From Candidatus Multivorans sp. (GTDB taxonomy: Bacteria; Acidobacteriota; Thermoanaerobaculia; Multivoradales; Multivoraceae), in NCBI GenBank assembly GCA_965238135.1, contig OZ250177.1, positions 4,192,599 through 4,256,598 of the forward strand: DNA of 64,000 nt, written 5' to 3'. Each line of letters starts with the position of its first letter. Within the stretch, counting starts at the first letter, position 1. The notes beneath the pieces are model-generated. The model was not told the origin of the DNA. It did no database searches and saw nothing but the letters and a program-made list of their open reading frames with translations. The translations under genes and the position numbers were made by a program. Shown piece by piece: positions 1 through 43,144 of the stretch.

Positions 1-1
1 C

Positions 2-316
2 GTGCTGCTGCCGGGCGGGGGGCGGCGCCTCCCGGAGGAGAACGTCCGGCGCTTCCGCAACCGGCTGCGGGGTTTGCGGGACAGGTGGCGGCAGGGAACG
101 GTGGCCGAGGACGAAGTGCGACAGCGGGTGCAGTCGTGGATCGCGCACGCCGAGCACGCGGACACCTGGCGTCTGCGTCAAACGATCTTCCGCGACGGGT
201 GGTTCGACCCGTCGCGGGGGCCTGGCTCTCCCCCGACGCGTTTTGCGCGGTGGTTCCTGGAACAACAAACCGAGGAACCTCCGCTCCGCGAACCGCAACA
301 GGAACACCACCGATAA
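2..316 (+). CDS. C-terminal fragment of a reverse transcriptase, most likely DGR-type (partial, runs off window start)
   Basis: Translated tail ...VRRFRNRLRGLRDRWRQGTVAEDEVRQRVQSWIAHAEHADTWRLRQ... resembles the conserved C-terminus of diversity-generating retroelement RTs (sW-GHa-hg-TwrLR pattern). The last ~30 aa are low-complexity because the ORF overlaps the AAC-rich TR-like segment. Confidence 0.4.
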   Translation: MLLPGGGRRLPEENVRRFRNRLRGLRDRWRQGTVAEDEVRQRVQSWIAHAEHADTWRLRQTIFRDGWFDPSRGPGSPPTRFARWFLEQQTEEPPLREPQQEHHR

Positions 317-356
317 CCGCAACAACAACAACGGTTTCCGTGTAGCCCGCACGCTC
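234..356 (+). repeat. AAC-codon-rich FGE/C-type-lectin-fold segment out of frame with its surroundings; candidate DGR template repeat (TR)
   Basis: Frame 0 translates to RRVLRGGSWNNKPRNLRSANRNRNTTDNRNNNNGFRVARTL, the RVxRGGSW...GFRxAR C-terminal signature of formylglycine-generating-enzyme-fold DGR variable regions. There are 11 AAC codons in ~100 bp. No FGE-like sequence lies upstream in that frame and the homology starts abruptly. Confidence 0.4.
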
Positions 357-367
357 AGCAGCCGGAG

Positions 368-391
368 CCGGCGCCGTCACGGCGGCGCCGG
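368..391 (+). other. GC-rich hairpin (9-bp perfect stem CCGGCGCCG/CGGCGCCGG, 6-nt loop) just 3' of the TR-like segment
   Basis: Direct reading of the sequence. DGR TR/VR regions are typically followed by GC-rich stem-loops. Confidence 0.35.
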
Positions 392-614
392 GAGTGCAGT
401 GAGCGTCCAGGGAGGGTCATGATGAGAACCCGGTTGGCCGCCCCTCTTGCCCCGCTTGCGGGGGAGGGGCGGCGGCCAGGTGGCCCACGAGGCCGCTTCG
501 TTTGCTTGCATCGCCTGCCGGGCGAAGGTAGATTGCGCGTAGATACCCGCCGGCAGCGTGCTGTCGGCTCAAGGGCTGCTCTTCGGGGCAGCCCTTGCTT
601 TTCTTAGGGACCGC

Positions 615-767
615 ATGAGGACGAGCGTCTACATTGACGGCCTGAACCTGTACTACGGAGCTCTGAAGGGAACACCGTTCAAGTGGCTTGACCCCATCAA
701 GTTGAGCACCGCTGTCCTGCCGCGGCAGTGTGTCGTTCGTGACGCCGATCCGGATCGTTACTTCTGA
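615..767 (+). pseudogene. NYN-domain (LabA-like) N-terminal fragment, truncated after ~50 aa
   Basis: MRTSVYIDGLNLYYGALKGTPFKWLDPIKL matches the NYN domain N-terminal strand (VYIDGxNLYY), followed by an early stop. Confidence 0.4.
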
Positions 768-1025: not shown

Positions 1026-1421
1026 CTAAGACCAGATCCGTCCCTGCCAGCCCGCCATCCCTTCAAGCGCATCGAACTCGGCGTCCTTGGAGATCAGCGG
1101 GCAACGCAGTTCGATCGAGGAAGCGGCGATGAGACGGTCGAACGGATCGCGATGCACCCAGCCGAGCATGCCGGCACGAGCTGCGATGGCCCGAGTGAAG
1201 GGAGCGGATAGCGTCTCGGTCTCGGTCACCAGGGCGTCCACATGCGGCGCCATGTCCGGCCACTTGCCCAGTCGCACCTTTCTCGTCACCTCGTAGACAC
1301 TGATCGGGCTGACATAGACCACGTCGGCATCGAGCACGGCAGCCTTCGCGGTGCCGGTGAGACGCCCTGGTTCCATGAGACTCCAAATCCACGCGTGAGT
1401 GTCGAGCAGGACGGAACTCAG
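1026..1421 (-). CDS. vapC: VapC-family PIN-domain toxin (type II TA)
   Basis: PIN signatures (...SPISVYEV..., DPFDRLIAA, RCPLISKD). The listed ATG at 1376 lacks the first conserved Asp. The same frame is open upstream and encodes LSSVLLDTHAWIWSL, the canonical VapC N-terminus, so the true start is a non-ATG codon near 1421 overlapping the antitoxin stop. Confidence 0.7.
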   Translation of the reverse strand: MSSVLLDTHAWIWSLMEPGRLTGTAKAAVLDADVVYVSPISVYEVTRKVRLGKWPDMAPHVDALVTETETLSAPFTRAIAARAGMLGWVHRDPFDRLIAASSIELRCPLISKDAEFDALEGMAGWQGRIWS

Positions 1422-1648
1422 GACGTTCCCTCCCAGAGAGCCAACTCGGCGTCGTCCATCGCTTCATTGAAGTCAGGCACGGACTTGACCAGATGGGCCA
1501 GGCTGCCGAAACGGAACCTCTCCGACGTTACGGGAACCAGCCTCACCGCAGGCTTGCCCCTGCGGGCGATGATCACGTCGTCGCCCGCTTCGGCGGCGAC
1601 GATGAGCTTCGACAATTGCGACTTGGCGGCGTGCATGTTAACGAGCAT
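1418..1648 (-). CDS. Phd/YefM-family antitoxin
   Basis: MLVNMHAAKSQLSKLIVAAEAGDDVIIARRGKPAVRLVP is the classic Phd/YefM N-terminus. Its stop overlaps the toxin start. RBS AGGGGG lies upstream. Confidence 0.8.
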   Translation of the reverse strand: MLVNMHAAKSQLSKLIVAAEAGDDVIIARRGKPAVRLVPVTSERFRFGSLAHLVKSVPDFNEAMDDAELALWEGTS

Positions 1649-1814: not shown

Positions 1815-2756
1815 CTACGACCGGCTCTTCCGGAGCAGCCGGCGGACCGCCTCGTCGTCGATCTTGTCGAGGTCGTCCTGGTACTTGAGGAGCACGCCCA
1901 GGGTGTCCCGCAGGATGCCGTCGGAGAGAGTTTCCTGGTCGAGGGCGATCAGGGCGTTCGTCCAGTCCAGGGTCTCGGCGACGCCCGGTTGTTTGAACAG
2001 ATCCTCCTCGCGCAGCGCCTGCACCAGGCGGACGATCTGGGCGGCGAAGTGCTCGGGCGCTTCGGGCACGCGCCGCAGGACGATCTGCACTTCCTTCTCG
2101 TAGTCCGGGAAGTCGATCCAGTGGTAGAGGCAGCGCCGCTTCAGCGCGTCGTGCACCTCGCGGGTGCGGTTCGAGGTGACGACCGCGACCGGGGGCGTCT
2201 CGGCCGAGATCGTGCCGATCTCTGGAATCGTGATCTGGAAGTCGGCCAGGATCTCGAGCAGGTAGGCCTCGAACTCCTCGTCGGCCCGATCGAGTTCGTC
2301 GATCAGCAAAACCGGCGGGGCCTCGCCTCGGCGGCTTGAGCGGACCGCGCGCAACAGCGGCCGCTCGAGCAGGAAGTCGGAAGAGAAGACATCGTCCACC
2401 ACCGCGGGAGCGTCGGCGCCGCCGGCTGCCTCCACGCCGCGCAGGTGGAGCAACTGCCGGCGGTAGTTCCACTCGTAGACGGCAGTCGAGATATCGAGAC
2501 CCTCGTAGCACTGGAGCCGGATCAGTTCGGAGCCCAGGCAGCGCGAGAGGGCCTTGGCGACCTCCGTCTTGCCGACGCCGGGTTCGCCCTCCAGAAAGAT
2601 CGGCTTGCCCATGCGCAGCGACAGGTAGATCGCGGTCGCCAGGTCCCGCTCGGCGATGTAGTCCTCGGCGCGCAGGGCGGCGACGACGGCGTCGACATCG
2701 GGGAAGCCCCGGTCGGCGCCGGGGCTGGAGCGCTGGAAGTTGGGCGAAACCGTCAT
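1815..2756 (-). CDS. MoxR-family AAA+ ATPase (CoxD/CbbQ-like, AAA_5)
   Basis: Walker A GEPGVGKT, Walker B LLIDELDRA, ~310 aa, MoxR-like architecture. Confidence 0.8.
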   Translation of the reverse strand: MTVSPNFQRSSPGADRGFPDVDAVVAALRAEDYIAERDLATAIYLSLRMGKPIFLEGEPGVGKTEVAKALSRCLGSELIRLQCYEGLDISTAVYEWNYRRQLLHLRGVEAAGGADAPAVVDDVFSSDFLLERPLLRAVRSSRRGEAPPVLLIDELDRADEEFEAYLLEILADFQITIPEIGTISAETPPVAVVTSNRTREVHDALKRRCLYHWIDFPDYEKEVQIVLRRVPEAPEHFAAQIVRLVQALREEDLFKQPGVAETLDWTNALIALDQETLSDGILRDTLGVLLKYQDDLDKIDDEAVRRLLRKSRS

Positions 2757-8745: not shown

Positions 8746-8749
8746 GGGG

Positions 8750-8777
8750 CCTGGGAACGCGGTCGTCTCGCCCGCAT
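8750..8777 (+). repeat. 28-bp direct repeat copy 1 (CCTGGGAACGCGGNCGTCTCGCCCGCAT)
   Basis: Identical except one base to the copy at 9037-9064. Sits directly after the ABC gene stop. Confidence 0.6.
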
Positions 8778-8818
8778 CCGGCGCGAAGCGCCGGTTCCGG
8801 TTCGGGTTAGCGGCTCCC

Positions 8819-9030: not shown

Positions 9031-9036
9031 CCCGGG

Positions 9037-9064
9037 CCTGGGAACGCGGGCGTCTCGCCCGCAT
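9037..9064 (+). repeat. 28-bp direct repeat copy 2
   Basis: See copy 1. The two copies bracket a 260-bp sulfatase gene remnant. Confidence 0.6.
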
Positions 9065-17834: not shown

Positions 17835-18242
17835 CTCGTCCCGCAGACGGAGGCTGCGACTGATGATCGGGTAGAGGAAGCACTCCGTCTTGCCGGAGCC
17901 GGTGCCGGTAGAAACGAGTGTCGAGCGACCCCCGACGATCGCGCGGATCGCCTTCTCCTGGTGCCGGTAGAGCTGCGAGACGGCGCTCGGAATCCGCTGC
18001 TCCAGATGAGGATGAAGCAGCCCCTCGGCCGCCAGGTTCGCCACCGCCGCGCCGCCGCGAAAGGGCCGCGAGAGGCTGACGAACGGCCCTTGCAGCAACG
18101 GCGACCGCCGCGCCTCGTCAAGCGACAGCAGTTCCCGCATTTGCCCATGCAGGTGCGGGTCCGCGAACGGATAGGCCCGCAACTGGTAGCGGAGAAAGCT
18201 CTGGAGGACCTTCTCCGTGAAGACGACTGGGTTCAGAGCCAT
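17835..18242 (-). CDS. Giant helicase, 5' portion (codons 1-136, Walker A STGTGSGKTECF), separated from the rest by the IS110 element
   Basis: MALNPVVFTEKVLQSFLRYQL...STGTGSGKTECFLYPIISRSLRLRDE. The paralogous copy at 19915-20700 reads straight through ...RLRDEGAAAGISAVIVYPMNAL, which pins the insertion point. Confidence 0.8.
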
Positions 18243-18551
18243 GGGGCCGGCAAGGCTACCGCTTCTGACGACAGCTTCTTGGCGCCGCGAGCTTGACGAC
18301 CCCGACATGCAGGCTGCGCCCGCCGCGATGGAGCGGGCCGTCCGTCGCGCACACAGGGACGCGCAGCGACACGGCACCGGTGTTCTCGTCGTCGTGAACG
18401 GCGAGATGGTGGAGGTGGAGCCGGACCCGGCGCTGTACGAGGACGACCCGGCCGCGAAACCGAGGAAGCGGCGGTGCGCCACCGAGCTTCGGCACAACAG
18501 AGTTGAAGCCCGGTTCAACGGAGTTGACGGGAGTCGTGCGTCGCTGGCGTT

Positions 18552-19022
18552 CTACGGCCGCTCCAAGCTGACGGTCCGTGCCGGTCCGTCGTAGGTCAAC
18601 ACAAGGTCGTTGAGGATGTCACGTCCGACTACGGCGATGAGGTGGAATCTCGCCAAATCGAGGCTGGCAACTCGGAGCGGCCACGATCCCATGCCGTCGA
18701 GCACCACTTCGACCTCGAAGCTCGGAGAGTTGATGTTCTTGTGACTGTCGTAGCGGAGGAAGGGAATCGAGTCGACCGACACCAAGCCGGCGTTCAACGC
18801 GGTTGTGGCGTCAATAACGGTCGTGTCGGCCCCGGTATCGAGGAGGGCGAAGCCCGACACGATGTCTCCCACGCGAACTCCTTCGCGCGCCTTTCGGCCC
18901 CGGTACGCGGGGTGGTAGCGAAGCGTGATGGGGAAGGTGGGGCGCCCGCGCTCGTCGTAGCGGGCCCTAGGCACGAAGGAGGGTCGGCATGAATACCGGC
19001 TCGGGGCGGGTGCCGCACTCAC
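18552..19022 (-). CDS. Retropepsin-like (clan AA) aspartic protease
   Basis: ALLDTGADTTVID contains the D-T/S-G-A catalytic motif in a ~150 aa single-domain protein. The start codon is uncertain because it overlaps the upstream small ORF. Confidence 0.6.
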   Translation of the reverse strand: MSAAPAPSRYSCRPSFVPRARYDERGRPTFPITLRYHPAYRGRKAREGVRVGDIVSGFALLDTGADTTVIDATTALNAGLVSVDSIPFLRYDSHKNINSPSFEVEVVLDGMGSWPLRVASLDLARFHLIAVVGRDILNDLVLTYDGPARTVSLERP

Positions 19023-19227
19023 GGACCAGCATCTTTCGGACGCCTAGTCGATACCCTTCGTCGATCGCTTCGCGGCGAGTCGGAAAGACGCCGATCAACT
19101 CTTGACCGCAGATCAGGACGTACTGGTCTGGAAACCTCGTCGCGTAGTCGTCGAAGTGCTCCTCATAGAACTCCAGTTCAACGGCGAGGAGCGACCCTGG
19201 CTGAGTCTCGGCGTCTCTCGCTGGCAT
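18967..19227 (-). CDS. Small conserved hypothetical protein (~86 aa) paired with the retropepsin-like gene
   Basis: MPARDAETQPGSLLAVELEFYEEHFDDYATRFPDQYVLICGQELIGVFPTRREAIDEGYRLGVRK... resembles the small proteins (DUF5678-type) often adjacent to bacterial retropepsin-like proteases. Weak. Confidence 0.35.
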   Translation of the reverse strand: MPARDAETQPGSLLAVELEFYEEHFDDYATRFPDQYVLICGQELIGVFPTRREAIDEGYRLGVRKMLVRECGTRPEPVFMPTLLRA

Positions 19228-19329
19228 TGGGTCCCTTCCAAGCAGTAGAAAAGCGCGGCTCGCTGATGACCTTCTCGCTTCACCGTAGCATGAGCACGGA
19301 GCGTGAGGCGGGGGGCATGGCGTCGAGCA

Positions 19330-20700
19330 GGGTGCCGCCGGCACCGCCGAGCAGGTCGGCCGTGCGGACCGTGCGGGCGCGGCAACTGCGGCACCGGTAG
19401 ACGCCGCGATGGGGCGACAGCTTGATCCGGTCGGCGTCGACCTGGTAGACGCCGCTGGCGTTCGGCATCGCGCGGCCGCGGGTGCCCAGAAGCTGCACCT
19501 GCTTCAGCAGGCCGCGCTCGGCCAGCATCTCGAACAAGCTCCGCAGCAGCTCCCCCGCCTGCTCCTGCTCGGCGCCCCACTTCGCGGCCATCTGCCTCAT
19601 CGTGGTCTGGCCGCCCTCGCTCAGCCACTGCAGGACGCGGCTGGGATTGTCGCCGGGGCGGCGTTTCAACTTGACGCCCCGTCCGCGATCAACGAGCGCT
19701 GGCGGAACCGGCGTGCGTGGTCCTTCATCCATCCAGGCGGCATCCTGGCGGTTGTCGCAGAACACGAGCAGCCGCGGCCGCTCCGAGTGGTGGACCATGT
19801 CCTGAGCCAGAACGTGAACGTCGGCGGCGTTGCTGGCGCGCACGGGCCGCGCCGGTTCGCGGTAGCGGCCGCCTCCGCCTCGGCCGCCCAACGCGTTGCA
19901 CGAGAGGCAACTCGTCAGGACCCCTGGAAGAGCTCGGCGTCCCGCTGGCGGGTGAAAAGCAGCTCCAGTTGCTTCACGTTCGTGAGCAGGATCCGCGGTT
20001 GCTCGCCAGCCGAACGCATCGCTTGCCGCGAGCAGGCCTCTTCGGCCGGGAACACGCTCTCGCCGCTCTTGGCCGCCCGTACCGCCTCGAGCTGCGCCTC
20101 GTAGTCCGAGCGGGAAGACCCCGGAGGAAGCCTGACGCCGCCCACGTCGCCTTCCCTCTCCGGCGTCTTGCCGGCGTACATCCCGAACGAAACGCCCGTT
20201 CCCGCCAGCAGCGAGCGCAGCCGCATCAACTGATCCTCGGCCAGCGCGTTCATCGGATAGACGATCACGGCGCTGATGCCGGCCGCCGCACCCTCGTCCC
20301 GCAGACGCAGGCAGCGACTGACGATCGGGTAGAGGAAGCACTCCGTCTTGCCCGAGCCGGTACCGGTGGAGATGAGGGTCGGACGTCCTCCTGCGATGGC
20401 CCGGATCGCTTGTTCCTGGTGGCGGTAGAGCTCCTCGATATCAGCAGGGATGCGCTGCTCCAGATGCGGGTGCAACAGCCCGTCGGCCACCAGATCGGCC
20501 GGTGCCGCGCCGGTGCGGAACGGGCGCGAGAGGCTGGCGAACGGTCCTCGCAGCAAAGGCGACCGCCGTGCCTGATCGAGGGACAGGAGATCCCGCATCT
20601 GGCGATGCAATCGCGGGTCCGCAAACGGGTAGGCCCGCAGTTGGTAGCGGAGAAAGCTCTGGAGGACCTTCTCTGTGAAGACGACCGGGTTCAGTGCCAT
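19330..20700 (-). pseudogene. Decayed partial duplicate (copy B) of the giant helicase 5' region, with internal deletions and frameshifts
   Basis: 20700-19915 encodes helicase aa 1-262 at ~90-95% identity to copy A. Further 3', pieces matching copy-A aa ~700-760 and ~1040-1150 follow in other frames (ORF 19280-20341). The duplication boundary lies only ~22 bp upstream of the ATG. Confidence 0.75.
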
Positions 20701-20887
20701 GGGGGCGGCAAGGCTACCGCCTGGTCCTGGTCGCGCCGCCCGTGGGAAGGCGGGCATCCTCCTCGTATCCGGTGCCGAGGCCCCGGACGAGCTGCCTGTC
20801 CGGTGTTCCAGGGCCGCTCGGTGGCTGGCCGACAGAGCGTCGCCGATCGCTGGCAATGCGGTCCGGCAGTCGGCAGGAGGATGAAGC

Positions 20888-34700: not shown

Positions 34701-37253
34701 CGCCCTTCTGGTAGTGGACGCCGTTCGAGTGGTTCTTGTCGCCGGCTTCACGGTTCTTCCAGGCCATGGAGGGGTAGTGCTGGAACTGGTCGAACCATGC
34801 GCCGATGAGTGAGTTCCCGCACCGGATCTTGTGATCGAGGAAGGAGAACGGCAGGTCGCGGTCCATCGTTTCGATCCAGAGCGACAACTGGCAGAGGGAG
34901 ACAGCCAGCGGATCCACGTCGACGCCATAGATGCAGCGTTCCACCACGTAGCGCTTGAGCTTGGCCCGGAGCCGCGGCTCGAAGTCGTCGGCATCGGGAG
35001 GGCAGGGGATCAGTTCGTCGCCGGGTTGCTCGACGGCGCCGGAACCTGTTCCGGGAGCGCCTTCTGACCTTCCGGCCAAGCCCAGCAAGCGGACCAGAGC
35101 GCGGTTGTCCTGCTTCTCGATCCGGTCGTGGTGCTCCAGCGAGGCGTAGAGCGCGTCGGTCAGGAAGCGTAGCGCCGCCAGTGGGAAGCTGCCCGAGCCG
35201 CACGCCGGGTCGCACACCTTCAGGCTCAGGATGTCTTCCGGCCGCTTGGGAGTCCAGTTCGCGGGCGGCGCGTGGCGGTCGGGTTCGCCGTTGGCGTCAA
35301 GCGGCGGGTCGTACGCGAGTGGGCGGAGAGTGCGCTGCACGGTGGGCACGGCGAGGCCGGGTCGGGTGTAGAAGCTGCCCGAGCCCTTGCGGGTGCCGCC
35401 CCAGCGGACCAGGTACCACTCGCCGGGGAGGACGACACGGCTCACCAGTTGACTCGCGCGCTTGCGGAGCGCCTCCTCGTGGGGGCCGAGGAACGTAGCC
35501 TGCGGCTTGGAGCGGCGCGGCTTCTTCACCAGGCCGGCGGCAAGGGCGGCGCGGCGCGCCCAGGTTTCGGCGCGGGTGCGGGTGGCGTGGCGGAGATCGT
35601 CGGTTGTGGCGGCGCCGTCCGAATCGCCTGAGGGCTCGGCGTGCTTCGCGGCGGGTGCGGGCAAGATGCCCACGTTCTCAGGCTCGTCTTCGTTCGGCTC
35701 GTCCGCCGGTTCGGCGTCCTTCTTGCCGGCCGTCTTCTTCATCGCCGCGAAGAGGTCTCGCAGTGCCTTGTCGTCCATCGCCTCCAGGCGGGCCAGGGGC
35801 AGCGCGGGCTGCTCGCCGACCGAGAGGAAGATGACCGAATCGTCGCTCGGCGCCGTCTTGAGTTCATAGTCCAACAGGCCTTCGTAGAGCACGCCGATGT
35901 ACTCGGTCGAGAGATCCGAGAAGTCCACCGGCGCCGACACCAGGCGGCTGCCGCGGCCCTGGCGGATGCGGACCTCGGTTCGTGTCAGGCGCTCCAGCAG
36001 ATCGTGAACCAGGGAGTCCGGCAGCAACTCTTCCCGCAGGCATGCGGTTTCGAAAGTGGCCAGGGAGCGGGAGAGGCCGTCCGCGGCCTCGGGCGAGCCG
36101 GGCGCGAACAGGTCGCCGCCGTAGGCGGGAACCGGCAGATCAGGATGGTGCGACCCGTCCCGCACCAGGTTGAACAAGGCCAGCAGCCGCGGCCAGGCGC
36201 CGTAGCTGCGAGTCTGCGAGCGGCCAGCCGCCGAACGCCTTCTGAGCGCTTCGTGCAGACCCCCCAGCCCGTAGCCGTCGTGGTAGACGGCGTCGTCGCG
36301 CGGCAGGAGCCCCCGCGCTTCCGCGAAGAGGATGACGACGAGGCGCATGATCACGCGGCAGGCGGCGCGGTAGATGTCCGCCGGATCGACCGTCGGGCAA
36401 TCTCGTTTCAGCGCTTCACCGTGGCTCTGGATCAAGAGTTCGACCGCCTCGCGCACCCGCTCGCCGAGGGCCTCCGAGAGTTCGGACTGGCCCTTGCGGC
36501 TGTCTCTTACGGCTTGCAGCAAGGGCGAATCGGACCCATCCTCGGGCGGCGTCCACAGGGGCGGCTGGATCAGGGTGGTGAGGGCGTTCAGGGCCGGCGT
36601 CGGCGCGCCGTCGGCGACCAGAGGTCGATGTCCCACTCGCACCAGGCATCGAAGTCGAGACCGGCGAAGAGGAGCCGCCACTGGCGGCCGTTCGTGACCA
36701 GGGCCAGCCGTTCGTTGCCGGCGCGAAGCCAGCCGAGGACGCGACTCGTTTCGCGCCGGCCGCGGCCGATGCCCACCTGCTTGTCGGAGGAAGCGAAGAC
36801 GGGCAGCACCGCGCCGCGGGGGCCGAGCCAGAGCTGGCGCGGCCGGACGCTCTCGCCGGTCAGCGCGCGGCGACTCCACTCGGCGGGCACGCGGTTGCCG
36901 CGCAGCCAGGACCCGCAACCGGGCTCGAACCCGCACAGGCGCTCCAGTACGAAGGCGATGAACTCCGACCTCTCGCTGGTGCTGCTCGGGCCGTGACCGC
37001 GCATCAGCTCCGCTCGTCGACGGAGATCGCTTTGGAGCCATGATCCGGGGGATTCCGGCGTGGAGTGGGCGGCGATCTCGCCCTGGCGCTGAGCGTCGAG
37101 CAGCAACCCGCCGTGGCGCAGGTCGTTCCAGCCCGGCAGGCCGGGGCGGGACCCGGATGCGGGCAGGATGCCCGCGTTCCCAGGGCCGACGGGGGCGCGG
37201 CTGCCGCCAGCGGCGCTGCCGTGCCCCTGACGACGAGGCGGGCGGCGGCTCAA
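31780..37253 (-). CDS. PglX/DrmMI-like (Eco57I-type) N6-adenine DNA methyltransferase, ~1.8 kaa, carrying a frameshift near 36615
   Basis: Motif I VCDPACGSGSFP. Motif IV LGNPPWD. Long C-terminal specificity-like region. The N-terminal ~210 aa are encoded in a different frame (36588-37253, TTGA overlap with the SNF2 stop) from the remaining 1610 aa. Confidence 0.8.
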
Positions 37254-40861: not shown

Positions 40862-43144
40862 TCCTGGGGCGCGGCGACGGAACATCGTCGCGCCGATCAG
40901 CAGCACAGCCGCCGCCGCGTACGGCAGCGCCAGCAGGCGGATCATCACGGGCACGTGCGCCTGGGTGTGCGCGAAGAAGACGGCGTACCAGGCGGGGACG
41001 GACCAGCCGGCGGCGAGGATGCCGGCCCAGCGCCAGGGGTCTTCGAGGGTCCACCAGCGGCGCAGGACGTAGACGGTGGCGGCGGCGAGCGTGGCGGCTG
41101 TGGCGCCGATCAGGATGAGGGCAAGCAGATCCGAGCCGAGGCCGACGGTGCCGAGGTGGTCGCCAACTCTCTCGAGGGTCCGTTCGAGGGTCGGCCGGCT
41201 GGCGAAGAAGGGATCGATGTCCGGGTGGATCGAACTGCGCGGGGCGCCGTAGAGCCGGTGGGTGAGCTGGTCCCAGAACTTGAACAGGACGGGTTCGCGG
41301 AACACGAGCTCGGCGAGGAGGACCCGCAGCAGGAAGACGGCGGCGAGGCAGCCGACGTAGGCGCCGGCGCAGCGGATCAGCAGCCGGCGGCGCCAGGTCC
41401 GCGAATCGCCGGGGTGGCCGGACGGTTCGGCGGCGTGGTCAGGGGCCGGCGGCGGGGCGATCGCAAGAGCCACAAGCAGGACGGAGAGCCCGATCAGGGC
41501 GCTGCCGAACAGGAGTTCGTGGTAGGCGATCAGGGCGCCGAAGGCGGCAAAGAGAACGATCTGGAGGCTTGGCCGCCAGTGCGCGATACGGAGTCTCGGC
41601 ACGGCGAGGAACAGGCCGACCGTCAGCACGTTCGAGGCGCCGGCGGTGAAGCTGCCGGCGCGGTCGTCGAGGTCGAGGAAGAGCAGGAGGCTGCCGAAGA
41701 GCGCGGCAAGCGCAACGGCCTGGAACAGGGTCTGGCGCCTCACGAGTGGGTTCGGCGTCACACCTGGGGTGGGCGGGAGACCGAGTCTTTGCCGGAGGCT
41801 GGCTGGACGCGCGGGTTCCCAGGCCGGAGGCAGGGTGGCTATCGCTGTCGCGATGATCAGGGCGCCGGCGAGTCCGAGGCCCAGCAGACCGAACGTCAAC
41901 ACCCGCAGCCGCTGCCGCAGTCCCTCGACGCCGACTCGGGGCAGCAGCCATTGCAGCATGACGCGCTGGCCGGCCCAGTACTGGTGGTAGAAGACGGTCA
42001 GGTAGTCGGAGTCGTCGACGGCGCCCTGGTCGAGGCGTTGCTTGAGCGCGTCGCAGGGGCGCTGCGGGCGCGTGTAGCGGTACACGCGGCGGCCGGAGAC
42101 GGTCAGTTCCAGGGTCGAACCGCCGCGGTCGAGGGCCATCAGGCTGAGCAGGCAGTCGTTGAAGCTCTCGCGCGAGTCTCCGATCGTGCGTCCCGGCTGT
42201 TCGTAGGAGGCGCGCAACGCTTCGGCCACCGGCGCCGGATCGGCGCGGACGGCGAGCCAGTTCAGCGCCAGGAAGACTGCGGTGGCCACGACGGTGACGG
42301 TGGCGACCAGGGCGGTGGCGCGGAGCGGCCCCAGGCGTGCGGAGTGCGGGCTGGAAGTCCGCGGGGAAGAGAACAACGCACGCAGGATCCGGAAGCCGTC
42401 GCGGAACGCCCTCAGTTTGCTCGTCGATCCTTCCGGCCGGGCGAAGTAGGGGCAATGGACTTCATCCCAGGCGAGGTCCGAGGACGCGGCGAACAGGGTC
42501 AGCTCGGTCTCGATCTCGAATCCGTTCGACCGCGCCGGGAAGTGGTCCACGAAGCGGCGCGAGAAGGCCCGGTAGCCGGACAGAAGGTCATGGACCTGGG
42601 GGCCGCAGCGCCAGCGGGCGAGGGCGGTGAAGAGGCGGTTGCCGAGGCGGCGCAGCGGGGTGTAGGCGTGCGCGTCGGCGCGTTTGCGGGCCGCCACGAG
42701 CATGTCGAGGTCACGCTCCTGGAGCGTCGAAACAAGGTGGCCGGCGCTCTCGGCGTCGTAGGTGCCGTCGCCGTCGGCCATCAGGTAGATGTCCGCGTCC
42801 ACCTCGCGGAACAGGCGGCGGATCGCCAGGCCCTTGCCGCGCCGGGGTTCGGCGATGACGGTCGCTCCGGCGGCCGCGGCAGCATCGGCGGTGCCGTCGT
42901 CCGAACCGTTGTCGCAGACGTAGACCGTCGCCTCGGGCAGAGCCAGCCGGAACGCAGCCACGACGTCGGCGATGGTCTCCTGCTCGTTCAGGCAGGGGAG
43001 GAGGACGGCGATGCGGGTGGGGTTCAGGGTGCGTCGCCGCCTGCGGTGGGCTCTGCTTGCCTGCCGGCTGCCGGGCCGAGCGCGAACAGGTGTTCCCGGC
43101 TCCTGATGTAGAGCCGGTCGCCGACGATTGCCGGCGTCGCCCAC
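40856..43144 (-). CDS. Family-2 glycosyltransferase fused to a C-terminal polytopic membrane domain
   Basis: IAVLLPCLNEQETIADVV...VYVCDNGSDDGT...RGKGLAIR...MADGDGTYD is the GT2 (DPM1-like) core. The true start is probably near 43020 (just upstream of TRIAVLLP), because the listed start overlaps the upstream gene by 120 bp. Confidence 0.65.
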   Translation of the reverse strand: MGDAGNRRRPALHQEPGTPVRARPGSRQASRAHRRRRRTLNPTRIAVLLPCLNEQETIADVVAAFRLALPEATVYVCDNGSDDGTADAAAAAGATVIAEPRRGKGLAIRRLFREVDADIYLMADGDGTYDAESAGHLVSTLQERDLDMLVAARKRADAHAYTPLRRLGNRLFTALARWRCGPQVHDLLSGYRAFSRRFVDHFPARSNGFEIETELTLFAASSDLAWDEVHCPYFARPEGSTSKLRAFRDGFRILRALFSSPRTSSPHSARLGPLRATALVATVTVVATAVFLALNWLAVRADPAPVAEALRASYEQPGRTIGDSRESFNDCLLSLMALDRGGSTLELTVSGRRVYRYTRPQRPCDALKQRLDQGAVDDSDYLTVFYHQYWAGQRVMLQWLLPRVGVEGLRQRLRVLTFGLLGLGLAGALIIATAIATLPPAWEPARPASLRQRLGLPPTPGVTPNPLVRRQTLFQAVALAALFGSLLLFLDLDDRAGSFTAGASNVLTVGLFLAVPRLRIAHWRPSLQIVLFAAFGALIAYHELLFGSALIGLSVLLVALAIAPPPAPDHAAEPSGHPGDSRTWRRRLLIRCAGAYVGCLAAVFLLRVLLAELVFREPVLFKFWDQLTHRLYGAPRSSIHPDIDPFFASRPTLERTLERVGDHLGTVGLGSDLLALILIGATAATLAAATVYVLRRWWTLEDPWRWAGILAAGWSVPAWYAVFFAHTQAHVPVMIRLLALPYAAAAVLLIGATMFRRRAPGP

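Follow-up and report, generated by a model that had tools for sequence, protein, structure and literature searches.

One characterized diversity-generating retroelement (DGR) is that of Bordetella phage BPP-1, which has the order mtd-avd-TR-Sp-brt, where TR is the template repeat and Sp the spacer, and for which the complex of reverse transcriptase (bRT), Avd and RNA has been described by electron cryomicroscopy (8ub7 series; Handa et al., bioRxiv 10.1101/2023.10.23.563531). In its RNA an Avd-binding stem-loop (Sp 3-33, 11 bp, UNCG tetraloop) precedes a primer strand (Sp 47-56) that pairs with the 3' end of the TR and in which A56 primes through its 2'-OH, followed by G57; after a gap of 2 nt, Sp 59-70 pairs with a segment 5' of the TR (the 'cPRT Stop'), and single-stranded RNA then leads into a long bRT-binding stem-loop (Sp 95-139). 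The Sp RNA self-primes cDNA, and the avd:Sp duplex is the point at which cDNA synthesis stops; stop duplexes, and Avd-binding stem-loops 3' of the TR that mostly have 9 bp and a tetraloop, have been predicted in 207 of 278 Avd-containing DGRs (Handa et al.). Other DGRs are arranged differently: the order avd-RT-TR, with RT the reverse transcriptase gene, constitutes architecture B2 (Wu et al. 2018, NAR 46:11, PMC5758913), and a TR that overlaps the end of the RT open reading frame (ORF) characterizes group 3 (Schillinger et al. 2012, PMC3521204). Here we describe the left edge of a 64,000-nt stretch (hereafter the window) of the genome of Candidatus Multivorans sp. (Acidobacteriota; contig OZ250177.1, positions 4,192,599 to 4,256,598), of which positions 1 to about 480 are, with high confidence, the 3' end of a chromosomal DGR with a presumed BPP-1-like mechanism, the overlap between its TR and RT gene being read-through of the ORF.

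An initial annotation, made from the letters of the window alone, had proposed that a DGR edge with its TR lies at the left end and that the cognate variable repeat (VR) would be found outside the window; both proposals were upheld when the contig was extended leftwards. The protein encoded by the PIN toxin gene (1026-1376) has an exact match on a 4.45-Mb contig in the European Nucleotide Archive, from which a 20-kb locus (L001) was taken as the reverse complement, such that window position equals 11377 minus L001 position; L001 and the window are 100% identical across their overlap of 11,376 nt. On the plus strand of the window, with negative numbers for positions upstream of its first letter, the order is target gene, GC-rich inverted repeat, avd, RT, TR (232-357) and Sp (358-478). 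The target gene (-2770 to -1349, 473 aa) encodes a protein of the FGE-sulfatase family (PF03781; C-type-lectin fold), the last 42 codons of which hold the VR, and hence a C-terminal VR in a target of the C-type lectin (CLec)/FGE fold. The avd gene (-1229 to -828, 133 aa), which is the marker of architecture B, is matched by PF22296 (bAvd) and by NCBIfam NF033474 (DivGenRetAVD; 107.2 bits, cutoff 80), and the RT gene (-847 to 316; L001 11061-12224, minus strand; 387 aa) by PF00078 (RVT_1). The avd ORF and the RT start overlap by 20 nt, so that there is no space for a TR between them. All three genes are intact ORFs in L001, and the left edge of the window is confirmed as the tail of an ordinary, complete DGR, whose target is the C-terminal end of a single secreted protein.

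When genomes representative of their species were scanned with the RT, 14 loci were returned, distributed among Ca. Multivorans, other Thermoanaerobaculia, Azotimanducaceae, Rariloculaceae, Pseudomonadales and metagenome-assembled genomes of Binatia, and 12 of these were taken into comparisons of the TR and RNA. All 12 relatives share the same layout, with a VR about 1.7 kb upstream and a TR straddling the end of the RT ORF; two of the loci (L005 and L011) have a second VR-bearing target gene. About 40 nt past the VR in L001 is the GC-rich inverted repeat CCAAGGGGG(N7)CCCCCTTGG, an equivalent of which forms a hairpin in 11 of 11 loci examined. Such a repeat downstream of the initiation of mutagenic homology (IMH) is found in about one third of DGRs and is not universal (PMC5758913).

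The TR (232-357, plus strand) comprises 126 nt, including 34 adenines, and its positions 232-316 lie inside the tail of the RT ORF. Frame 3 of 234-356 reads RRVLRGGSWNNKPRNLRSANRNRNTTDNRNNNNGFRVAR and contains 11 AAC codons, bearing out the FGE-fold signature that had been noticed there. On its own this peptide matches the Pfam FGE-sulfatase profile (E 1.7e-6, 28.3 bits, cutoff 23.3) over profile positions 213-255 of 255, and nothing FGE-like stands upstream in frame 3; the homology therefore starts as abruptly as had been remarked, being limited to the final 43 profile positions. A search for a copy differing at adenines recovered the VR at -1482 to -1357 (L001 12734-12859, minus strand), 1714 nt upstream of the TR and aligned to all 126 nt of it without gaps. 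Mismatches between the two copies number 18, of which 17 fall on TR adenines (binomial P = 2.9e-9, given that adenines occupy 34 of the 126 positions), and 15 of the 17 adenine substitutions fall on codon positions 1 or 2. Of the two, the copy in the window is the one rich in adenine, and no gene body belongs to it; it is the TR and not the VR. Scanning both strands of the 64-kb window with tolerance for changes at adenines, and searching it for repeats, revealed no VR, the best non-adenine match being 54%.

The same adenine-centred pattern of differences separates TR and VR in 10 related loci. Across eight VRs of close relatives, 32 of the 34 columns corresponding to TR adenines are variable, against 8 of 92 non-adenine columns, whereas the seven TRs vary in only 3 of the 34 adenine columns; VRs that change at these columns while TRs remain constant indicate repeated adenine-directed diversification in the lineage. 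A344 is mutated among the eight VRs and A351 and A357 in none, placing the 3' limit of mutagenesis between A344 and A351, which is the site of the predicted TR:Sp duplex described below. Position C350 of the TR is G in all eight VRs, a fixed difference by which the 3' ends of VR and TR can be assigned, from their sequences, as an IMH and a non-identical IMH* respectively.

The frame-2 ORF that enters at the window edge and ends with TAA at 314-316 (1-316, plus strand) had been read as the tail of a DGR-type RT, and it is indeed the C-terminus of the 387-aa protein, the PF00078 domain of which continues upstream of position 1. The protein carries the motif LPIGNLTSQ, within which IGNLTSQ fits the DGR-specific (I/V/L)GxxxSQ, a signature of domain 4 of DGR RTs (PMC3521204). 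Its top match in PDB is Bordetella phage bRT (8ub7, E 4.6e-41), well ahead of any group II intron RT, the closest of which has an E of 7.6e-18. A search for group II intron, retron or DRT identity gave scores under every NCBIfam cutoff (TIGR04416, 123.6 against 300; retron St85 model, 42.5 against 235; Drt2 to Drt5, far under). Relatives of the RT were also sought in viral contigs and none was found.

Homology to bRT stops at about residue 341, corresponding to about window position 175 and some 55 nt before the TR, and the 85-nt overlap between TR and RT ORF (232-316) lies beyond this point. In most relatives a C-run that is one base longer puts the RT tail in another frame, and the RT stop is found 12 nt before the end of the TR, or 45, 66, 166 or 216 nt past it. 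Because tail frame and stop vary in this way, the overlap looks incidental, and is probably read-through of the ORF past the part that forms the conserved RT fold. The varying tail and the end of bRT homology ahead of the TR led us to reject the idea of a functional protein fusion between RT and TR. The position of a TR 3' of, and overlapping, the RT had been called unusual in the initial annotation, a description that needs tempering, since B2 and group 3 have been described and the 12 relatives are all alike; the avd-RT-TR layout is a known minority architecture. With B2 (PMC5758913) the present element shares the order of avd, RT and TR, the upstream target, the CLec-type VR and a target of FGE-sulfatase type, there is no difference in kind, and it is a further example. 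With group 3 (PMC3521204) it shares a TR over the 3' end of the RT ORF, but here the overlapping tail differs among relatives in frame and stop and so is not a conserved protein feature.

Directly behind the TR is a conserved non-coding RNA of about 120 nt (358-478, plus strand), equivalent to the Sp spacer, which follows the TR in 12 of 12 relatives belonging to three phyla (Acidobacteriota, Gammaproteobacteria and Binatia). The window holds a single copy of its invariant core, GAGCGTCCAGGGAGGGTCATGATGAG (401-426). When the sequences 3' of the TRs are aligned, conservation collapses beyond about 478; from there onward the window aligns closely with a single locus (L014), a part being common to L005 and L011. 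Rfam, searched over 1-1200, holds no family for Sp and gave just a weak terminator-shaped match at 541-604. We folded 13 sequences (window 162-500 and its equivalents) with RNAalifold and obtained six helices outside the TR, here called H1 to H6. Over the 59 tested pairs, pairing is possible in 95.2% of cells, a share that drops to 45-50% once the partners are slid, and compensatory changes are seen in 21 pairs, against 4-7 after sliding; 0 of 500 shuffles reached the observed values. Covariation is concentrated in H4, H5/H6 and H1.

The first helix in transcript order, H1 (187-200 with 207-220), lies in the RT coding tail just 5' of the TR; its 14 pairs are 93% paired across the 13 sequences, with compensatory changes in five. 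H2 (223-231 with 410-419) is a long-range duplex resembling the cPRT Stop, the 5' strand of which abuts the 5' boundary of the TR, the TR/VR homology starting directly after it at 232; its 10 pairs are 99% paired, with two showing compensatory and three one-sided G-U changes. H3 (349-357 with 400-408) is the predicted template:primer duplex between the IMH*-like 3' end of the TR and Sp, in which ACGCTCA (351-357) and TGAGCGT (400-406) are reverse complements and a further pair joins G349 to C408; it is 99% paired and its sole changes are from A-U to G-U. H4 (368-377 with 382-391) is a GC hairpin in which CCGGCGCCG (368-376) and CGGCGCCGG (383-391) are perfectly complementary over 9 bp, or 10 bp with U377-G382, capped by a CACG tetraloop of the YNMG type. 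In position and shape it agrees with the Avd-binding stem-loops described 3' of the TR in other DGRs, including that at Sp 3-33 of BPP-1, and it is the predicted Avd-binding element. Four of its 10 pairs have changed in a compensatory manner, for example to CCGAAGGCAC/GTGCCTTCGG in locus L010, and the loop is kept as CA(C/A/U)G.

Between H4 and the next hairpin lie the predicted primer strand (400-408) with the invariant A409, the Sp strand of the stop duplex (410-419), which begins 1 nt from the primer strand, and an A-rich linker, UGAUGAGAACCCGGU (420-434), that is unpaired in the consensus fold and invariant in its 5' half. By its position relative to Sp 79-94 of BPP-1, this linker may be the A-minor and 'thumb ring' segment. 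A long stem-loop follows, composed of H5 (435-446 with 464-475, 12 bp) and H6 (450-454 with 459-463, 5 bp, CUUG loop) separated by a UUG bulge; 10 of its 17 pairs are compensatory, and it occupies the place of the BPP-1 bRT stem-loop, for which reason it is the predicted RT-binding element. Beyond the conserved block, in 478-607, two terminator-like hairpins (478-498 and 570-597, plus strand), each with a T-rich tail, are likely, if putative, 3' ends of the DGR transcript; a consensus terminator scan flagged three sites against 0.9 expected.

Numbered from Sp1 at window 358, the elements are a stem-loop (11-34), a primer strand (43-51), a 1-nt gap (A409), a stop strand (53-62), a single-stranded stretch (63-77) and a long stem-loop (78-118). 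On the consensus fold the predicted Avd-type stem-loop, TR:Sp duplex and upstream:Sp duplex are all present; judged by comparison, the block conforms closely to the BPP-1 Sp model, and we infer that the order and spacing of its elements match. The two DGRs also share a homologous RT and Avd, a C-terminal VR of C-type-lectin fold, adenine-specific differences between TR and VR, a fixed non-adenine difference at the 3' end of TR and VR, and a GC-rich inverted repeat downstream of the VR, besides the succession of post-TR elements from the tetraloop stem-loop through to the long stem-loop. They differ in that avd-TR-Sp-RT in BPP-1 is replaced here by avd-RT-TR-Sp, with Sp after all of the genes, and consequently the sequence 5' of the TR is the RT coding tail and not the 3' end of avd. 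H1, upstream of the stop duplex, is an extra conserved helix to which we could match nothing described for BPP-1; the short stem-loop after the stop duplex in BPP-1 is not predicted here; the gap between primer and stop strands is 1 nt instead of 2 nt; and the present element is chromosomal with an FGE-sulfatase-type scaffold, while BPP-1 is a phage with Mtd as target.

On the BPP-1 model, an RNA of about 187-478, the minimal candidate DGR RNA, would bind the RT-Avd complex, with 368-391 contacting Avd and 435-475 contacting RT. Pairing of Sp 400-408 with TR 349-357 would bring the priming nucleotide, C408 or A409, into the active site; cDNA would start at about TR 345-348 and run 5'-wards through the TR, with misincorporation opposite adenines, until halted at the duplex of 223-231 with 410-419 that adjoins the TR start, and would finally replace the VR. 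Two independent observations fit this model: TR/VR homology starts at 232, right behind the stop-duplex strand, and the 3' limit of mutagenesis is located at the predicted primer duplex, with the fixed difference at C350 in the stretch predicted to remain uncopied.

Several observations weigh against a functional DGR of this description. The C-run at 230-234 has five bases in the window and six in 12 aligned relatives, and the RT tail is therefore shifted in frame and G412 unpaired in H2; the missing base may reflect a homopolymer miscount in a long-read assembly, or else a true deletion and thereby a lesion. H3 is almost invariant, which is compatible with pairing and offers no compensatory proof of it, and both the choice of C408 or A409 as candidate priming nucleotide and the binding of Avd and RT by the hairpins are drawn by analogy from BPP-1. 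At L011-L014 the RT is matched in pieces, with 186-338 of 387 residues in any single segment, which suggests that RT genes are frameshifted or decaying at the syntenic locus in several Ca. Multivorans genomes. Finally, the protein collection holds no VR variants of the target protein, its 90% cluster consisting of one sequence, and the protein is identical in two deposited contigs.

Together, the lack of VR variants, the short C-run in the stop-duplex strand and the fragmented RTs at the syntenic loci would suit a genuine DGR by descent that is now an inactive fossil, its TR/VR differences being left from past activity. Decay does occur in this lineage, as the apparently disrupted RT genes of several Ca. 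Multivorans genomes attest, and we consider such a fossil unlikely. It is opposed by the intact RT, Avd and target ORFs, by the retention of all adenine-rich codons in the TR and by the absence of non-adenine drift between TR and VR beyond the fixed IMH/IMH* position; moreover, the absence of VR variants is weak evidence, because consensus assemblies hide variation within populations.

The RT ORF includes H1, the stop-duplex strand 223-231 and the greater part of the TR, and ribosomes finishing the RT would consequently unwind the self-priming structures. It is conceivable, though we would put it forward as speculation only, that the end of the RT coding sequence serves, in the mRNA, as a part of the functional DGR RNA, such that translation of the RT and use of the template are coupled or mutually exclusive. 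If so, there would be a built-in cis-preference or translational gate, undescribed for DGRs, with H1 as a lineage-specific extra.

The remaining alternatives concern single parts of the block. The GC stem-loop at 368-391 had been noted as a separate feature following the TR, and its perfect 9-bp stem stands, but it is not isolated, being the first element of the conserved post-TR RNA. A strong GC stem directly past the ORF and TR might be taken for the transcription terminator of the RT gene; this is improbable, as it lacks a T-tract, was not flagged in the terminator scan and is surpassed as a candidate by the hairpins at 478-498 and 570-597, and as some 90 nt of conserved, covarying sequence continue past 391, pairing with the TR and with sequence upstream of it and so requiring one continuous transcript. 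Nor is the core GGGAGGGTCATGATG (411-425) at all likely to be a ribosome-binding site and the start of a small protein: a Shine-Dalgarno-like GGGAGGG does precede an invariant ATG by 4 nt, and the listed ORFs include one of 62 aa (419-607), but translation of 13 loci from the ATG at 419 gave no common frame or peptide, indels break the triplet register, early stops interrupt two of the loci, and variation tracks base-pairing instead of codon structure. That the segment is the remnant of a frameshifted FGE-sulfatase enzyme gene with no retroelement involved, as the Pfam match in frame 3 could imply, is refuted for practical purposes, because the match covers the last 43 profile positions only with no domain upstream in frame, the intact FGE gene is the one bearing the VR, and that adenine-differing copy, an Avd gene and a DGR RT all adjoin.

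In six Ca. Multivorans genomes (L004, L005 and L011-L014) and in the window contig, the DGR cassette has the same neighbours, a VWA/CoxE-like gene on one side and a MoxR-like AAA gene on the other, and its genomic context differs in the other phyla; this pattern suggests that the cassette is inherited vertically in the genus and has moved horizontally outside it. We found no published description of a DGR for this phylum and genus in the literature, and no DNA match in phage GenBank records. Among plasmids, the sole matches were TR-like stretches in cyanobacteria (NZ_AP026076.1, NC_009927.1, NZ_CP046974.1, NZ_CP025929.1 and NZ_CP117770.1, from Acaryochloris, Microcystis and Nostoc), which are 75-81% identical to about 244-345, have no match to Sp and probably represent the TR or VR of DGRs, other than this one, of FGE/CLec type. 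A scan of metagenomes and IMG/VR with the Sp-core motif returned seven loci (L016-L022) with neither a similar TR nor an Rfam match, which were not used; the ORFs of L016 gave no information. Four of them (L016, L017, L018 and L020, from JGI metagenomes) have a near-exact Sp core, GAGCGTCCAGGGCCGGTCATGATGAG, followed by a GC hairpin, and no AAC-rich TR upstream or obvious RT ORF nearby; these copies may belong to the RNA of another kind of retroelement or have arisen by chance.

About 0.5 kb 3' of the DGR RNA is a type II toxin-antitoxin pair (1026-1648, minus strand), consisting of a PIN-domain toxin (1026-1376; PF01850, E 5.5e-10) and a Phd/YefM antitoxin (1418-1648; PF02604, E 3.7e-8). Being absent from most syntenic Ca. 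Multivorans loci, this pair is variable cargo beside the DGR. MoxR/CoxD-like AAA ATPase and VWA/CoxE-like genes are usually paired; here the DGR and the toxin-antitoxin pair stand between them, the flanking genes being at window 1815-2756 (minus strand) and L001 14355-15539. A called gene of 50 aa, MRTSVYIDGLNLYYGALKG... (615-767, plus strand), has no Pfam match and looks truncated, the N-terminus of its product resembling the starts of NYN/PIN-like nucleases; homologous fragments follow the DGR in L005, L011 and L014. Elsewhere in the window, large direct repeats of 80-95% identity within 13561-20591 (13561-13860 with 19364-19663, 14403-14595 with 19735-19927, 15773-16072 with 19922-20221, and 17834-18133 with 20292-20591) suggest a partly duplicated multi-gene block. 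A dispersed GC-rich element of about 35 nt, GGGCCTGGGAACGCGG..CGTCTCGCCCGCATCCGG, is present in both orientations at about five intergenic-looking sites (8747-8782, 9033-9077, 20734-20772, 37153-37191 and 41783-41825) and resembles a repetitive extragenic palindrome or miniature inverted-repeat transposable element (REP/MITE-like).

The main value of the chromosomal DGR at the left edge of the window is confirmatory, in that it is a complete DGR from a poorly studied acidobacterial genus and not a new kind of system. It provides exact coordinates for a minimal RNA (about 187-478), and the presence of the same RT/TR/Sp lineage in Gammaproteobacteria and Binatia points to horizontal spread. The TR-flanking RNA of one phage DGR recurs here in another gene order, with some support from covariation, and this recurrence, together with a predicted primer duplex located at the 3' limit of mutagenesis, supports self-primed reverse transcription as a general feature of DGRs.

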